This document shows, in pieces, positions 3,734-64,000 of a stretch of DNA of 64,000 bases (its first letter is position 1; each line of letters opens with the position of its first letter). The DNA comes from a virus. The translations under genes were made by a program, and so were the position numbers. The notes under the pieces are model-generated. The model saw only the letters and a program-made list of their open reading frames with translations. It made no database searches and was not told the origin of the DNA. The DNA lies in the IMG/VR virus record IMGVR_UViG_3300043178_000025; one strand, 5' to 3'.

Positions 3734-4042
3734 ATGGGTAGCAGTCTTGCCGCCCGCGCCGCGCAGCTTCACCAGCAGGGCTTGAAGGTCAGGGAGATCG
3801 CGGCGAAGCTCAAGCGTTCGCGGTGGAACATCTACTACATGCTGAAGCGTGCTGGCATCCGGCTCTACAAGAAGGATCGGGCGGGTCTCGTTGACGAGCA
3901 GCCGGACGCGGAGAGGAAGTCCGTGCCGATGCTTGTCGATGCGATCCGGCTTCTGGAGGAGCGGGTCGAGGCGCTCTACGACGAGGCGCACAGGATCGAG
4001 GCCGTGCTCGACACGCTGAGGCCGCTCGTGCGGAAGGCGTGA
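3734..4042 (+). CDS. HTH DNA-binding protein with coiled-coil C-terminus
   Basis: AGGAG RBS; GLKVREIAAKLKRSRWNIYYMLKRAG. Confidence 0.75.
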   Translation: MGSSLAARAAQLHQQGLKVREIAAKLKRSRWNIYYMLKRAGIRLYKKDRAGLVDEQPDAERKSVPMLVDAIRLLEERVEALYDEAHRIEAVLDTLRPLVRKA

Positions 4043-6875: not shown

Positions 6876-7697
6876 ATGGACAGCACCAAGGACATCTGCG
6901 TGGCGCACATCGCGCCGTTCCGGGATCGCGACCGGGACCCGGAGCGTTTCCGGATGCTTGTCGAGAGCATCGACAAGTACGGACTCATCGAGCCCATCAT
7001 CGTCGCCCCGAACGACGACGCGAAGAAGCCCTACCGTCTGGTGGCCGGGCACGGACGGCTCAGGGCCGTGAAGAAGCTCGGCTGGCAGAAGGTCCCCGCC
7101 GTGATCCGGGAGAAGTTCGAGCTTCGGGACTACGTCGTCGAGAACTGGCGTCGGGACCTCACGAGCTACGAGACGGCGATCCTTATGGAGCACCAGATTC
7201 AGATGGGGCGCTCCGTGGAGGACGTGGCGAAGACGTTCTGCGTGACGGAGCCCGTCGTGCGGCAGTACGCGACCATCGTGAAGAACCTTCATCCGGAACT
7301 GGCGAAGCTCGCGAAGAAGCAGGCGCTCACGATGAAGGACGCGCATCGCATCGTGAGGAAGCTGCCGGAACAGAAGGTGCAGGAGGTCCTAATCGAGACG
7401 ATCAAGAGGGCCGAGAAGGTCGAGCCGACGCCCTATGTCGTCAAGCGGGCCGTCGAAGACGTGCTCGGCGCTGTCCGCGTGCGCGGCTCGACGGCTTCCA
7501 TCGACACGGTCGAGAAGCTGGAGAAGGTCCGCGAGGAGGTCTTCACGCAGACGCAGGACACCCGCGAGACCATGAGCGTGATTCGGAGCCATTGGCTCCG
7601 GTCCGTGGGAGAGCTTCGCATCCTGCTCAAGGACGTGACGTACAGGAAGCTCTTCGACAAGCACGGGATCGACTACAAGCACATCGTCAAGGCGTAG
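6876..7697 (+). CDS. ParB/Srx-like N-terminal domain protein with HTH
   Basis: LVESIDKYGLIEPIIV, LVAGHGRLRAVKKLG, VVENWRRDLT. Confidence 0.88.
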   Translation: MDSTKDICVAHIAPFRDRDRDPERFRMLVESIDKYGLIEPIIVAPNDDAKKPYRLVAGHGRLRAVKKLGWQKVPAVIREKFELRDYVVENWRRDLTSYETAILMEHQIQMGRSVEDVAKTFCVTEPVVRQYATIVKNLHPELAKLAKKQALTMKDAHRIVRKLPEQKVQEVLIETIKRAEKVEPTPYVVKRAVEDVLGAVRVRGSTASIDTVEKLEKVREEVFTQTQDTRETMSVIRSHWLRSVGELRILLKDVTYRKLFDKHGIDYKHIVKA

Positions 7698-7706
7698 GAG
7701 GAAGCC

Positions 7707-8585
7707 ATGCACACCGACAACATCCGTCTCGACAGGATCGAGATTCCCGAGAAGTACCGCCGCGAGAAGTCGGACGACTTCACGCGGGAGCAGAGTTTCC
7801 TGACGAAGTCGATCAGGGCGATGGGGCTCAGGTTCCCCATCACGGTCAAGGAGCGCGGGCGCGGCTACGTGCTCGTGGACGGCGTCCGTCGCTACAACGC
7901 CTTCCGCGCCATGCGGAGCGAGGCGATCCCGGCGCGGGTGATCGCGGAGGGCGACAAGCGCGACCTCGACGTGCTCCGGTTCCAGTTGAACGTCCACCGC
8001 GAGAACCTGAAGCCGATGGACGAGGCCCGACTCTTCCGCCAGATGGTCGCCGAAGGCTGGTCGAAGCAGGAGGTCGCCGACGCCATGGGCCGGAAGATCG
8101 GGACGCTCAACCGCTACTTCGACTGCCTGCGCGTGAACGCGAAGTGGCAGCATCTCGTGAACACGCGCACGATCACGCTCTTCGACGTGCAGCCCGTCGC
8201 GGCGCTGTCCTCGGCGGGGCAGAAGTACCTCTACGACCAGATCAAGACCCGCGAGCTTCCGTTCAACGGTCCGACCATCGAGAGCGTGACGCGGACGATG
8301 GACCCCGTGAAGAAGCCCGAGTATTTCAACCTCCCCAAGCAGGTCGCCGCCCAGCGCATCAACGAGCGGCACGGCCATCCGTTCGCGATGCAGAAGGTCG
8401 AGAGCGTGGCGAAGATGAAGCTCATCACGGAGCATCGCCAGAAGCTCATCGAGAAGTGGGAGGAGGAGATCAGCGCCGTCATCCCCGTCATCAAGAAGGC
8501 GATGGGGACCCCGGAGGTCTGGGATGTGCTGCCGACGCGCACGAAGAACGCCTTCAAGGACTTCAGCGATGAATACATAAAATGA
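7707..8585 (+). CDS. second ParB-like protein
   Basis: LTKSIRAMGLRFPITV, LVDGVRRYNA, NVHRENLKPMDEA. Confidence 0.88.
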   Translation: MHTDNIRLDRIEIPEKYRREKSDDFTREQSFLTKSIRAMGLRFPITVKERGRGYVLVDGVRRYNAFRAMRSEAIPARVIAEGDKRDLDVLRFQLNVHRENLKPMDEARLFRQMVAEGWSKQEVADAMGRKIGTLNRYFDCLRVNAKWQHLVNTRTITLFDVQPVAALSSAGQKYLYDQIKTRELPFNGPTIESVTRTMDPVKKPEYFNLPKQVAAQRINERHGHPFAMQKVESVAKMKLITEHRQKLIEKWEEEISAVIPVIKKAMGTPEVWDVLPTRTKNAFKDFSDEYIK

Positions 8586-11032: not shown

Positions 11033-12085
11033 ATGGGTAGCGCGACCATCGTCTACACGCGGCGCGAATTGGAGATGCGCCAGATCAAGAGCGACGTGAG
11101 CATCGGGGACACGGAGTACCAGTTCCTGTGCGAACTCGCAGAGAAGTGGGGCGTCAGCGTCTACGCCATCGCGTGGCTCGGCGGGAAGCCGTACCCCACG
11201 CAGGCGGCGCTCTTCAAGATGTTCGACGACAAGCGCGAGAAGGAGAAGCTCATCGTCGCCGGGTGGGAGACGAAGCCGATCCAGAGGGCGACGAAGGAGG
11301 ACATCCGGGCCGGGTACGAGTGCTTCATCAGGCTCTTCGACAAGGGCTGCTTCGACGAGGCCACGAAGAAGATCGCGAAGGAGCAGATGACGGTCGAGAT
11401 GGTGGAGAAGCTCAGGGGCACCTACACCTACGTCTTCAAGGAGGAGGGCTGGGCTTCGATCCAGACCGTGCGGATGCCTGCCATGCAGAACATCGACTAC
11501 ATCAACCACATGGCGCAGACGCGGGCCATCGACCGAACGCTCCGGATCATCGTGCGCTGCCCGTACACAGCCGCAAGCGAGCTTCCGGACGGCACGCCGG
11601 ACGGCAGCGTGAGCATCCAGCAGGCGGGCCAGCAGGGTCCGGCTCCGCAGCCGCCCACGGATGAGAGCGGCGGCGTCATGCTCAGTCGTCCGAAGAGGCA
11701 GGAGCCCGTGAAGGACAACGTGAACGTCGAGATCAAGGTGGGCGCTCCTATCACGCCGCCGCCGGACGCGGCGAAGCCGTCGGAGATCAGCCCGCCCGTG
11801 AGCGTGCCTGCCGAGAAGAAGGACGAGAAGATCAATGAGAAGCAGATCGGCGCTCTCATGGGTCGCTGGGGCGAGTACGTGAAGCGCCGCATGTCCGGGC
11901 TCAAGGGACCGCAGATCGAGGCGAAGATCGACCGTCTCGTGAAGGCCCTCTACGGGCACACGTCGAAGAAGGACATCACGGTCGGCCAGCTTGCGGAACT
12001 CATGGATTTCATGGAGAAGGGCGAAATCGAGATCACGGAGGAAGAGGCCCCGAAGGAGGAGCCGAAGGTCGAGGCGAAGTCGTGA
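11033..12085 (+). CDS. putative single-strand annealing protein (RecT/Red-beta-like)
   Basis: HMAQTRAIDRTLR..TAASEL motif, proline-rich linker, helical C-terminal domain; near the Gam-like gene. Confidence 0.55.
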   Translation: MGSATIVYTRRELEMRQIKSDVSIGDTEYQFLCELAEKWGVSVYAIAWLGGKPYPTQAALFKMFDDKREKEKLIVAGWETKPIQRATKEDIRAGYECFIRLFDKGCFDEATKKIAKEQMTVEMVEKLRGTYTYVFKEEGWASIQTVRMPAMQNIDYINHMAQTRAIDRTLRIIVRCPYTAASELPDGTPDGSVSIQQAGQQGPAPQPPTDESGGVMLSRPKRQEPVKDNVNVEIKVGAPITPPPDAAKPSEISPPVSVPAEKKDEKINEKQIGALMGRWGEYVKRRMSGLKGPQIEAKIDRLVKALYGHTSKKDITVGQLAELMDFMEKGEIEITEEEAPKEEPKVEAKS

Positions 12086-13937: not shown

Positions 13938-14549
13938 ATGTCTACGGCAGTTGCATCGAGTCGTGTCGTGAACCGTCTGCTTCGCGTGAACGTCACCATC
14001 AAGGGTGTGACGCCCATGCTGCTCAATCGTCCGACACAGGAGCAGCTTCTGAAGATTCGGGAGAAGGAGAGATCGCCGAAGGGTGCGCCGAACGTGACGC
14101 CCCGTGAGGAGTGCGATGGAAAGGTCTACAAGGACGCAGATGGGAAGCTCTATCTTCCCGCTCACATGCTCTACGCCTGTCTCGTGAAGGCGGGACAGTT
14201 CGTGCGTCTCGATGGAAAGCGTCAGATCAGCACGGCCACGTCTACGGTGCTCCCGGCTTTCATGACCATCGACGACAAGGTCATGAAGCTGACGACGCCG
14301 GGATGGGAAGTGGACATCGCGCCCGGCAAGAACAAGGCTGGGGAGATGATTCCGCTGGTGCGGCCTCGCTTCGACGAGTGGAGCTTCAACGTGCGTGTCA
14401 CCATCGACACGCGGGAAATCGCGGAGCAGAAGATGAGGGAACTCTTCGACATCGCTGGAAAGCGGTGTGGGATGGGGTCGAATCGCCCGAACTGCAAAGG
14501 CTTTTACGGGCAGTTCGTGGTGGACTGCTGGGAGCATCTGACGGACTAG
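13938..14549 (+). CDS. stand-alone Cas7/RAMP-superfamily protein
   Basis: AGGAGG RBS; VTIKGVTPMLLNR, YLPAHMLYACLVKAG, RPRFDEWSF, and C-terminal Gly-rich loop AGKRCGMGSNRP..GFYGQFVV. Confidence 0.8.
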   Translation: MSTAVASSRVVNRLLRVNVTIKGVTPMLLNRPTQEQLLKIREKERSPKGAPNVTPREECDGKVYKDADGKLYLPAHMLYACLVKAGQFVRLDGKRQISTATSTVLPAFMTIDDKVMKLTTPGWEVDIAPGKNKAGEMIPLVRPRFDEWSFNVRVTIDTREIAEQKMRELFDIAGKRCGMGSNRPNCKGFYGQFVVDCWEHLTD

Positions 14550-38365: not shown

Positions 38366-38443
38366 GCTCCCGTAGCTCAGTTGGTAGAGCGGCGCTCTCT
38401 AAAAGCGCGTCAGTCGTGGGTTCGAGCCCCATCGGGAGCACCA
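38366..38443 (+). tRNA. tRNA with anticodon CUA (amber suppressor)
   Basis: Acceptor GCTCCCG/CGGGAGC, D arm GCTC-AGTTGGTA-GAGC, anticodon stem GCGCT/AGCGC with loop CT-CTA-AA, T loop TTCGAGC, encoded CCA. Confidence 0.92.
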
Positions 38444-38450
38444 CATTCGC

Positions 38451-38478
38451 TTGACACGTTTCGGTCCCGTGGTAGTCT
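38451..38478 (+). promoter_or_regulatory. sigma70-type promoter for the pth2-like gene
   Basis: TTGACA-16 nt-TAGTCT with extended TG. Confidence 0.7.
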
Positions 38479-38499
38479 TACGAGTGAAAGGAGAACATC

Positions 38500-38847
38500 A
38501 TGGCAGACACGTAGGAAGCGCGGAAGTACGTCTACGTCATCGTCCGGTCCGATCTCACGCCCGTCCACCAACTGGTCCAGTCCGTTCACGCAGCCCACGA
38601 AGCAGGAATCCGCTTCGGCAATCGCGACGACATCTCCTCGATGGTCGTCTGCACCGTTCCCGATGAAGGGGCGCTGCGTCTCCTCGCCGCGAACCTGTCG
38701 CTCTGCGGCGTGAAGCACTACCTCTTCGTAGAGGACGACTTCGGGAACCAAGCGACGGCGCTCGCTACGGAGCCGATCAACGGCGACGCCCGCCGCACGT
38801 TCAAGAAGCTCCCGCTGTGGAGCCCGGAGCACGCGGAGTCCGCATGA
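38500..38847 (+). CDS. Pth2-like peptidyl-tRNA hydrolase with in-frame TAG at codon 5
   Basis: AAAGGAGA RBS; ATG GCA GAC ACG TAG GAA..; YVYVIVRSDL..QLVQSVHAA and TALATEP match the Pth2 family. Confidence 0.82.
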
Positions 38848-38853
38848 AAACAC

Positions 38854-38926
38854 GCGGGGAGGGTGTGAAGCGCACACGCGGTTGATAGCCGCGAGGTCCA
38901 CAGGTCGCGCTGTGGTCCCCGCTCCA
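38854..38926 (+). ncRNA. atypical tRNA-like cloverleaf (apparent anticodon GAU)
   Basis: GCGGGGA/TCCCCGC acceptor + T + CCA; CGCGG-TTGATAG-CCGCG arm; non-canonical D and T loops. Confidence 0.6.
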
Positions 38927-38927
38927 C

Positions 38928-39007
38928 GGGCAGGTAGCTCAGAGAAAGAGTGACCGCCAGTCCGGACTGGCGGGAGGTCGGAGGTTTAAGTCCTCCCCTG
39001 CCCACCA
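38928..39007 (+). tRNA. atypical tRNA (Pro-like 3' half) with palindromic enlarged anticodon arm
   Basis: GGGCAGG/CCTGCCC acceptor + A + CCA; T arm GGAGG-TTTAAGT-CCTCC; anticodon arm CCGCCAGTCCGGACTGGCGG. Confidence 0.65.
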
Positions 39008-39028: not shown

Positions 39029-39733
39029 ATGAAAAGCAGAGTGGCCGTCGGCTACATCCGCGTCTCGACGACCAAGCAGGACGAGAGCGGGCTCTCCCTT
39101 GAAGAGCAGAAGCGCCGGATCGAGGCGTGGGCCGTAGCGCAGGACCTCAAGCTCGAACAGGTCTACGAGGACGGCGCTGAGAGTGCGAAAAACCTCGACC
39201 GTCCGGAAGTGCAGGAGCTTCTGCGGCGTGTCGTGGCGGGCGAGATCAGCCACGTCATCGTGTACAAGCTGGACCGCCTGACGCGCTCGGTCAGGGACCT
39301 CTACGAACTCATCACGGTGTTCCAGAGGCACAATGTCGCCTTCTGTTCCGTGACGGAGTCCCTCGACACGTCCTCTGCCATCGGCAGGGCCATGGTGGGG
39401 CTCATCGGTGTCTTCGCTCAATGGGAGCGGGAGACCATCGCGGAGCGGACGATCATGGCGCTCTCGGCGAAGCGGCGGCGGGGCGAGCGCCTCGGCGGGC
39501 ATCGGCCCTTCGGGTGGAAGACGAAGGGGAAGAAGCTCGTGCCCGATGAGGAGGAGCAGGCGGTCCTCAAGGCCATCCTGAAGGGTGTGGCCGAGGGCAG
39601 GGGGTACTCCGAGATCGCGGGCATCCTGAACCGCAAGGGAATACAGCCAGCACGGGGGAAGAAATGGTACGCCAGCAGCGTCCGCAGCGTGGTTCTGCGT
39701 GCGAAAAAGGCACCGCCGCCCACGGGGGAGTAG
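39029..39733 (+). CDS. serine recombinase (resolvase domain plus partial recombinase domain)
   Basis: VGYIRVSTTKQ, DRPEVQELL, VYKLDRLTRS, FAQWERETIAERT, PFGW. Confidence 0.93.
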   Translation: MKSRVAVGYIRVSTTKQDESGLSLEEQKRRIEAWAVAQDLKLEQVYEDGAESAKNLDRPEVQELLRRVVAGEISHVIVYKLDRLTRSVRDLYELITVFQRHNVAFCSVTESLDTSSAIGRAMVGLIGVFAQWERETIAERTIMALSAKRRRGERLGGHRPFGWKTKGKKLVPDEEEQAVLKAILKGVAEGRGYSEIAGILNRKGIQPARGKKWYASSVRSVVLRAKKAPPPTGE

Positions 39734-63710: not shown

Positions 63711-64000
63711 CTACTTTCTCGTCAGGAGCACCACGCCAGCGCCGAGGGCCCCCACGCCGAGAAGAAGCCCCCACCACGGAATGCCCATGATCTCGCCCGG
63801 CTTCGACGGAGCCACGTACCCCGGAGCGCCCGGCGCGGGGGCCATCTGCGCCTGCTGCATCGCCATCTGCGCCTGCGCCATCTTCGTCTGAAGCTCGACC
63901 TGCTTCGTCGCGGCGGTCGCCTGAATCTTCGCGATGTCTTTCGCCGTGCTCGACTGGAGCTTGGCGCTGTAGATACTGCCTGCCGCACCCGCGATGGTCG
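63711..64000 (-). CDS. C-terminal part of a membrane-anchored virion-like protein (runs off the window)
   Basis: Read by hand: ..AKLQSSTAKDIAKIQA..GIPWWGLLLGVGALGAGVVLLTRK*. Confidence 0.75.
   Translation of the reverse strand, partial: TIAGAAGSIYSAKLQSSTAKDIAKIQATAATKQVELQTKMAQAQMAMQQAQMAPAPGAPGYVAPSKPGEIMGIPWWGLLLGVGALGAGVVLLTRK

Follow-up and report, generated by a model that had tools for sequence, protein, structure and literature searches.

Organization of the locus

The subject of this analysis is a short gene pair in the virus record IMGVR_UViG_3300043178_000025 of the IMG/VR database, of which one strand of 64,000 nt (the window, to which coordinates refer unless another locus is named) was examined. 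Between positions 38366 and 38847, an amber-suppressor tRNA gene with the anticodon CUA is followed by a gene which carries an in-frame TAG at codon 5 and whose body is predicted to encode a protein that folds like Pth2, a peptidyl-tRNA hydrolase. All features of the locus lie on the plus strand. The tRNA gene (38366-38443), which a preliminary description of the locus had recognized by its CTA anticodon loop, was found by both ARAGORN and Rfam, and its cloverleaf is the minimum-free-energy fold. Downstream, reading of the sequence gives a promoter-like element (38451-38478) consisting of TTGACA (38451-38456) and TAGTCT (38473-38478) separated by 16 nt, a strong Shine-Dalgarno sequence AAAGGAGA (38487-38494) placed 5 nt ahead of an ATG, the four leader codons ATG GCA GAC ACG (Met-Ala-Asp-Thr; 38500-38511), the TAG (38512-38514) with G as the next base, and an open frame of 110 codons closed by a TGA stop (38845-38847). 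This arrangement had been listed in the preliminary description and was recovered in full. The body (38515-38847) was assigned to the Pth2 fold on the basis of its homologs, a family profile and a structural model.

The leader ATG at 38500 lies 57 nt downstream of the tRNA gene and is the sole start codon between an upstream in-frame stop codon at 38485 and the TAG. Past the TAG, the window offers no ribosome-binding site (RBS), and the first in-frame ATG, GTG or TTG is reached at 38641, 43 codons on. Hence, the list of open reading frames (ORFs) and the public protein collection, in which this DNA is represented by a C-terminal fragment of 68 AA (entry P0007), retain only the end of the gene; the loss of its N-terminal region due to the TAG, claimed earlier, was thereby confirmed.

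The TTGACA/TAGTCT pair, also listed in the preliminary description, resembles a promoter. A scan with a promoter consensus did not accept the pair, whose -10 hexamer matches the consensus at 3 of 6 positions, nor did it accept any other site. In the window and three related loci (L001, L070 and L071), however, TTGACA is invariant and is followed after 16-17 nt by a hexamer (T/C)AGT(C/A)T, while the spacer between them has diverged; AAGGAG is invariant in the same four loci. The Pth2-like gene is thus likely to be transcribed from a separate promoter located past the tRNA gene, as hexamers kept across a varying spacer suggest.

Identification of the encoded protein

The body of 110 residues submitted alone had no significant match in Pfam or among PDB sequences, and its score for the Pth2 family PF01981 (14.8 bits, E = 0.034) is below the gathering cutoff of 23. 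The 35 homologs found, of about 100-106 residues, carry neither a functional name (the sole label being ‘hypothetical protein’) nor a Pfam domain. A profile built from 65 family sequences matches solved Pth2 structures (24bt_A, E = 5.6e-7; 2zv3, E = 6.8e-6; also 1rzw/3erj, 1rlk and 1q7s), and PF01981 is matched by 53 of the 65 members at E ≤ 0.1, with a best value of 1.5e-11. The AlphaFold2 (AF2) model of the window protein has a pLDDT (predicted local distance difference test) of 94.3. When searched against the PDB with Foldseek, its 15 best matches are Pth2 or close Pth2-fold proteins with a probability of 0.99-1.0 and template modeling (TM) scores of 0.52-0.77 (at least 0.62 for the first 14). 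TM scores of 0.7-0.77 were obtained for PH1539, human Bit1, MJ0051, AF2095 and Sulfolobus Pth2, and significant Foldseek matches are confined to the Pth2 fold. Profile and model together identify the gene product as a diverged Pth2-fold protein, so that the label ‘Pth2-like’ used in the preliminary description does not hold for the single sequence in Pfam, but does hold at the level of profile and fold.

The fold is thus shared with Pth2 as represented by PF01981 and the structures 1wn2, 2zv3, 3erj, 1xty and 1q7s (human Bit1/PTRH2), and so are the motifs R-x-D-L, Q-x-x-H-A and T-A-x-A/G-x-x-P. Besides its score below the Pfam threshold, the window protein differs from Pth2 in two replaced motifs. 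According to HMMER alignments to 24bt and 2zv3, the GK motif of solved Pth2 proteins corresponds to (Q/H)Q in the family (H18-Q19 in the window), and DAGxTQ corresponds to E-P-D-x-G-N-Q, in which an invariant Glu (E73) takes the place of the Asp and a Gly that of the Thr. Four residues, Q22, H25, E73 and T81, do not vary within the family; Q22, H25 and T81 are found in solved Pth2 as well. Mutagenesis of Sulfolobus Pth2 is said to have identified the Lys of GK and the Asp and Thr of DAGxTQ as catalytic.

At E ≤ 1e-10 the family comprises 2,483 cluster representatives. Many of them begin at profile positions 6-10, as expected when gene callers start them after an early stop codon.

Use of TAG in the window

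Among 77 ORFs of the window with a clear coding signature, 50 end with TGA, 17 with TAG and 10 with TAA. The ORFs ending at 1244, 7697 and 17501 are among those closed by TAG, and a further TAG is located at 14547-14549. The frame remains open across the TAG at 7695 and the one at 63713 (minus strand), and each of the two is followed, a few codons on, by a separate start codon for the next gene. All stop codons of the window were scanned for a gate, defined as a stop with a start codon at most 10 codons upstream, at least 70 open codons of coding composition downstream and no early downstream start; only the TAG at 38512 fits. When TAG is read as sense, ORF coverage rises no further than when TGA or TAA is treated in this way. 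This coverage test is too crude to classify the homologous loci for recoding, since removal of any stop codon raises coverage. The TAG gate is, therefore, confined to a single gene in the 64-kb window and is not part of a genome-wide recoding, in agreement with the earlier statement that TAG is a normal stop codon elsewhere in this DNA.

These counts bear on the explanation that the phage uses TAG as sense throughout (similar to genetic code 15) and that the Pth2-like gene is one of many with an in-frame TAG. A phage-encoded tRNA-CUA is indeed a hallmark of code-15 phages (10.1101/2021.08.26.457843; PMC13037316), and at five homologous loci (L033, L036, L037, L042 and L049) a second in-frame TAG occurs within the gene. 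A phage-wide sense code is nevertheless highly improbable for the window: 17 of its 77 ORFs terminate at TAG, no other ORF shows the gate pattern, treating TAG as sense brings no particular gain in coverage, and where a frame runs past TAG the following gene has its own RBS and ATG, as at 7695/7707.

Two observations concern TAG codons in same-frame arrangements. Two tandem ParB-like genes (6876-7697 and 7707-8585) are in the same frame, with the TAG and a further 9 nt between them; as the second gene starts from an RBS and ATG of its own, this TAG is a true stop. The second TAG at the five loci named above is located about 38 codons past the first and indicates either a double gate or a wider reading of TAG as sense.

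Conservation of the early stop codon

Homologous loci were taken from IMG/VR (69), other assemblies (4) and cultured phages (4), and each was read upstream in frame from the β-strand carrying R-x-D-L. A gate in the strict sense was assigned when an ATG was present at most 9 codons before the stop codon, the stop was 8-16 codons before the R-x-D-L strand and no ATG intervened between stop and strand. This applies to 46 of 63 distinct upstream contexts and, under a looser definition, to three more (L021, L023 and L042). The stop codon of the 46 loci is TAG in 44 cases and TGA in 2. Leaders are 1-8 codons long, most commonly an ATG plus one codon (22 cases), and their last codon most commonly encodes Thr (17 of 46). 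In most gated homologs, the leader ATG is preceded by a similarly good RBS. The preliminary description had proposed to look for an early TAG in homologs next to suppressor tRNAs; an early in-frame stop is conserved in about three quarters of the distinct homologs.

The base following the stop codon at the 46 loci is G (24), A (21) or C (1), but never T; hence, it is a purine in 45 cases. Since the residues encoded after the stop are not conserved, this bias looks as if it acted at the nucleotide level. A purine after the stop codon reportedly favors amber suppression, a finding attributed to Bossi in 1983 and to Miller and Albertini in the same year.

In a maximum-likelihood tree of 64 distinct proteins, 50 are encoded by gated genes (looser count) and 14 by ungated ones. 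Gated genes are present in every major clade and on both sides of the midpoint root, at loci of 28-64% GC, and the early stop is kept down to 30% protein identity. The ungated genes form several small clades; parsimony gives about 8 changes, of which well-supported branches force at least 2. Judged from this distribution, the gate appears to be old and to have been lost repeatedly or, less likely, gained. In a second collection, consisting of contigs of bacterial metagenome-assembled genomes (MAGs) assigned to Nitrospiraceae, Alcaligenaceae, Planctomycetes, Omnitrophota and others, 7 of 8 loci are gated, and the stop is a TAG followed by a purine in 7 of 7. Gates are also found in cultured phages, namely in Cronobacter phage GAP32 (ATG GCA CAA TAG) and Salmonella phage Arash (ATG CTG TAG).

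The specificity of the pattern was assessed in all DNA fetched (~1,300 ORFs) by a scan for an RBS and an ATG with a stop codon no more than 6 codons on, followed by at least 80 open codons lacking an early start. With TAG as the stop codon 24 matches were obtained, 19 of which belong to the Pth2-like family, compared to 2 matches with TAA and 6 with TGA, one of the latter belonging to the family.

That the gene is a pseudogene, or its TAG an error of sequencing or assembly, might be suggested by the 68-AA fragment which alone represents it in the public collection and by the annotators of cultured phages, who truncate or skip it. Yet the same early stop recurs at no fewer than 46 distinct loci of strongly diverged sequence and in complete genomes of cultured phages, and the body keeps both a coding signature, with a G+C content at third codon positions (GC3) of 0.85, and the invariant residues of the family. 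In addition, the assembly available from Logan for the freshwater metagenome that is probably the source run is identical in sequence at a word depth of 28 with zero variants; this assembly is not independent of the window, but the depth argues against a low-coverage error. The chance that the stop is an artifact or a mark of decay is thus next to negligible.

GenBank records of cultured phages, and metagenomic gene calls as well, either contain the gene in shortened form or lack it. The GenBank coding sequence of GAP32 (L075) begins 87 nt inside the gene. For Arash (L077), a ‘peptidyl-tRNA hydrolase’ fragment of 50 AA is annotated and the CUA tRNA (3807-3881) is labeled tRNA-Phe. No annotation is present at the place of the gene in Serratia phage BF, Yersinia phage fHe-Yen9-04 and several Erwinia phages. 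In three ungated homologs, L013, L040 and L076 (ORF364 of Xanthomonas phage XacN1), the Pth2-like domain carries at its N-terminus a fused extension of ~175 residues without a Pfam match.

Suppressor tRNAs and stop type

The tRNA-CUA of the window is a class I tRNA, canonical in its cloverleaf and in its D and T loops, with discriminator base A73 and an encoded CCA end; the Rfam alignment (RF00005, 62.2 bits) is full-length and canonical. Its amino acid identity was approached by similarity to 322 other phage tRNAs, among which the nearest non-suppressors are 65-78% identical and belong to many isotypes.

Transfer RNAs within 3 kb of the gene were predicted with ARAGORN at the homologous loci. 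Of 150 such tRNAs 41 have the anticodon CUA, and all of these are on the strand of the gene; in many cases, the window included, 50-150 nt separate the end of the tRNA from the leader ATG. At 7 of the 8 MAG loci, a tRNA-CUA is present within 1 kb on the same strand. Five gated genomes without a CUA in the flanks were selected (contigs of 236 kb, 50 kb, 572 kb and 527 kb, and the cultured phage GAP32), and all five carry a tRNA-CUA elsewhere. Both TGA-gated genes are located in genomes with a tRNA-UCA, which is directly upstream of the gene in L044 and is the only tRNA of the record in L011. A matching suppressor tRNA was thus found in every gated genome checked, usually adjacent and co-oriented, and the stop type tracks the suppressor anticodon: TAG occurs with CUA and TGA with UCA (2 of 2).

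The co-occurrence also bears on a gate that is real but read by other means, that is by near-cognate readthrough in the host, a host suppressor or low levels of release factor 1 (RF1), so that the gene would report the termination capacity of the host. Early stop codons are said to terminate poorly, and a suppressor tRNA always competes with RF1, whose level necessarily affects the output. Such an explanation does not account for a matching suppressor in every gated genome tested, mostly on the strand of the gene and no more than a few hundred bases away, and we consider it quite improbable.

Alternatively, the TAG could truly end a tiny leader ORF, either a minigene similar to bar of phage lambda or a regulatory upstream ORF, with the body either translated independently, through reinitiation or a non-canonical start codon, or never translated, and the tRNA-CUA used otherwise. 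An ORF of 2-5 codons behind a strong Shine-Dalgarno sequence resembles the bar minigenes, a GTG or TTG does follow the stop at some loci, and TAG is a normal terminator in the window. A plain terminator, however, predicts neither that the leader is in frame with the body at every gated locus, nor that stop and conserved strand enclose no ATG, GTG or TTG in ~70% of gated loci and in the window (which has GTC where some of the other loci have GTG or TTG), nor that an RBS after the TAG is absent in the window, nor that the stop type follows the suppressor anticodon, including the two TGA cases, nor that a purine follows the stop almost without exception. An independent leader ORF is accordingly judged unlikely.

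Several special identities of the tRNA were rejected. ARAGORN labels it ‘Pyl’, which is a consequence of the anticodon alone. A tRNA-Pyl has a short D loop without GG, a variable loop of 3 nt and a long anticodon stem; the window tRNA has a full-length canonical match, GG in the D loop and a TTCGA T loop, which does not fit a pyrrolysine tRNA. Among the approximately 25 window ORFs scanned against Pfam or PHROGs none matched pylS or pylBCD. An initiator tRNA starting translation at UAG was ruled out by the G1-C72 pair and by an anticodon stem without three consecutive G-C pairs. Initiation at the TAG was rejected since the Shine-Dalgarno sequence is 17 nt away from it, compared to 5 nt from the ATG.

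Further suppressor and rescue genes were noted near some of the loci. Phage XacN1 carries two tRNA-CUA genes (PMC5852040). On the 527-kb phage contig of L024 (L089), a tRNA-CUA is located beside a tRNA-UUA (11466-11626), placing an amber and an ochre suppressor together. A transfer-messenger RNA (tmRNA) gene is found upstream of the amber-suppressor tRNA at a distance of 20 nt in L067 (580-1005 and 1026-1101) and of about 1.1 kb in L064 (504-838 and 1953-2028). A tmRNA near the suppressor may be a provision for ribosomes reading through a TAG to the end of the mRNA.

Proposed function of the gate

Taken together, the comparison of the loci indicates that the TAG at codon 5 is probably a conserved programmed gate which ties the output of the Pth2-fold protein to the activity of the suppressor tRNA. 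Ribosomes would start at the ATG at 38500 behind the strong Shine-Dalgarno sequence and would terminate after four codons unless the phage tRNA-CUA decodes the TAG, in which case they would continue into the Pth2-fold protein of 115 residues. Termination at codon 3-6 would waste almost nothing. We infer that the tRNA is made and charged and that readthrough occurs. The TAG is located in a non-conserved N-terminal tail, which is unstructured in the model, four residues before the first β-strand. In such a disordered and variable tail any inserted residue should be tolerated and its identity should not matter; the codon would, according to the model, work as a switch rather than as a coding position. 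The core proposal of the preliminary description, a Pth2-like protein made only by way of readthrough, is thus supported by a stop kept in roughly three of four homologs, by its match to the anticodon and by the lack of recoding in the window.

Other observations weigh against a gate, or limit what it can explain. The homologs are not uniformly gated, as shown by the 14 ungated proteins in the tree. A tRNA-CUA is also present in 3 of 5 ungated genomes examined, and the tRNA is, hence, not explained by the Pth2-like gene alone. The complete genome of phage RaK2 has an ungated homolog and no suppressor tRNA, from which it follows that the function of the protein does not require the gate; an incomplete ungated contig likewise has none. 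Across the sampled genomes, then, the gate appears to require the tRNA, while the protein does not appear to require the gate. At some gated loci gene callers use a GTG or TTG between the stop codon and the conserved strand, and initiation independent of the suppressor may take place there. Back-up stops are not in excess near the ends of the 17 window ORFs closed by TAG. With an efficient suppressor, one in five of the phage proteins would be extended, and readthrough should, therefore, be weak, transient, partial or tolerated. Finally, since the GK and DAGxTQ motifs are altered, peptidyl-tRNA hydrolase activity of the protein is uncertain.

Regarding the purpose of a programmed gate, the product may serve general processing of peptidyl- or aminoacyl-tRNA, either in an amount set by the activity of the suppressor or only once phage tRNAs have built up; this is a fair possibility, but short of an expectation. 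The ungated copy in RaK2, which lacks a suppressor, argues for a general role of the protein in connection with tRNA, of the kind proposed for Pth2 of jumbo phages (PMC7824862). The purposes suggested in the preliminary description, for which the gate might sense RF1 activity, tRNA-targeting defences or drop-off stress or might feed back on the suppressor, are likewise conjectural. Negative feedback holding UAG readthrough low is a more doubtful purpose, although by analogy to the release factor gene prfB it would be attractive given the cost of suppression. In its closed form, also doubtful, the Pth2-like enzyme would act on the aminoacyl or peptidyl form of the suppressor, with more readthrough leading to more enzyme and more enzyme to less readthrough. 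If such a homeostat were true, standard-code phages which end a fifth of their genes in TAG could maintain a suppressor at a level both constant and safe, and the arrangement could be a stepping stone to full TAG recoding. What is left of our expectation falls to positive feedback or to something unforeseen.

Comparison with known systems

Similar to prfB, which encodes release factor 2 and has an early in-frame UGA, the Pth2-like gene is a translation-factor-like gene with a conserved early in-frame stop codon, at which termination yields only a short peptide. In both, the amount of a protein related to termination or recycling would depend on how this codon is decoded. In prfB, the stop is escaped by a +1 frameshift, whereas here the body is in the frame of the leader and escape would be through a suppressor tRNA. 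The product of prfB reads its own stop codon and the feedback loop is proven; for the Pth2-like gene, feedback by the product is a proposal.

The bar minigenes of phage lambda are ORFs of 2-5 codons with a strong Shine-Dalgarno sequence, the toxicity of which depends on peptidyl-tRNA hydrolase (the host rap phenotype). They share with the leader described here the short stop-ended ORF, the strong Shine-Dalgarno sequence and the connection to a peptidyl-tRNA hydrolase. The bar minigenes stand alone and act by peptidyl-tRNA drop-off, whereas the present mini-ORF is in frame with a hydrolase-like gene and provides its sole start.

Code-15 phages (Lak and crAss-like phages) likewise combine a phage tRNA-CUA with in-frame TAG in phage genes. 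In contrast, one gene with one TAG at a fixed position is concerned here, TAG ends 22% of the other ORFs, and the arrangement is found in cultured phages using the standard code. For TAG-recoding phages, the idea has been published that suppression times gene expression (10.1101/2021.08.26.457843).

In jumbo phages, Pth2 is part of a set of genes for RNA repair and ribosome rescue (PMC7824862). The window gene differs in its stop codon gate and its link to a suppressor tRNA, and full-text searches of the literature returned no description of either for Pth2. Pth2 of jumbo phages, phage suppressor tRNAs and TAG recoding, and the early stop codon as a sensor (prfB) are thus each known already; their combination was found in no paper. 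Many large standard-code phages carry ‘orphan’ suppressor tRNAs, and the authors of the XacN1 genome could identify no target of its suppressor tRNAs (PMC5852040); the Pth2-like gene would provide such tRNAs with their first concrete client. A natural circuit of compact form is thereby suggested, in which an enzyme of the tRNA-recycling type is coupled to stop-codon readthrough.

tRNA-like RNAs and neighboring genes

The Pth2-like gene of the window is followed by two tRNA-like RNAs on the same strand. The first (t1, 38854-38926) has a cloverleaf as its minimum-free-energy fold, with an acceptor stem of 7 bp and a CCA end. Its D and T loops are non-canonical, and it was detected neither by ARAGORN nor by Rfam in the window. 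Homologs of t1 directly follow the gene in L070 and L071, where the anticodon arm is capped by a UCCG or UUCG tetraloop. The second (t2, 38928-39007; Rfam tRNA 46.5 bits, fold z-score -3.5) has canonical acceptor, D and T arms and a CCA end, but no usable anticodon: its anticodon arm forms a hairpin of 8 bp capped by a tetraloop, which appears as an 11-nt insert in the anticodon loop relative to the Rfam tRNA model and to which ARAGORN assigns a four-base anticodon ‘ccgg’. In the window this tetraloop reads CCGG, compared to GNRA in L070, L071 and L002. With an anticodon arm of this form, t2 cannot decode. It is kept in L070, L071, L001 and, in two copies, in L002. These four loci and the window constitute the window's clade, to which all t2 matches of a covariance model are restricted; hence, t2 was rejected as a family-wide RNA partner of the gene. 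Both RNAs could be decoys, substrates or processing signals.

The anticodon arm of t2 (38954-38973) is a perfect palindrome of 20 nt ending 56 nt before a serine recombinase gene (39029-39733; 234 AA, Resolvase and Recombinase domains), and this palindrome could double as a recombination site. Besides the serine recombinase, the genes of the window include those for an SNF2 helicase, a DUF3987 protein, ThyX, the two ParB-like proteins and a DNA methyltransferase, which look like those of a phage or phage-like replicon.

At other loci, two families of small proteins occur downstream of the Pth2-like gene, and both are absent from the window. A protein of about 110 AA with the motif K.L...Q...K.ARKT is found in the wider clade of the window, including its closest IMG/VR relative L001 (L001, L003-L008, L010, L012, L014, L019 and L125); it had no match in Pfam or PHROGs. 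A protein of 120-165 AA, characterized by the motif (R/K)WGFHPC...W.RW.RK.P.NR, is encoded just past the gene at ~16 distinct loci (L016, L017, L025, L033, L037, L042, L045, L049, L054, L126 and L128-L132), which include 6 of the 8 bacterial MAG loci. It also had no match in Pfam or PHROGs, and its AF2 model (pLDDT 94) had no fold match in the PDB or in the clusters of the AlphaFold database. In L129, the gene of this family is preceded in frame by ATG ACN TAG and at once a further ATG (~2890-2905), perhaps a further short leader of the cassette that ends at an amber codon.

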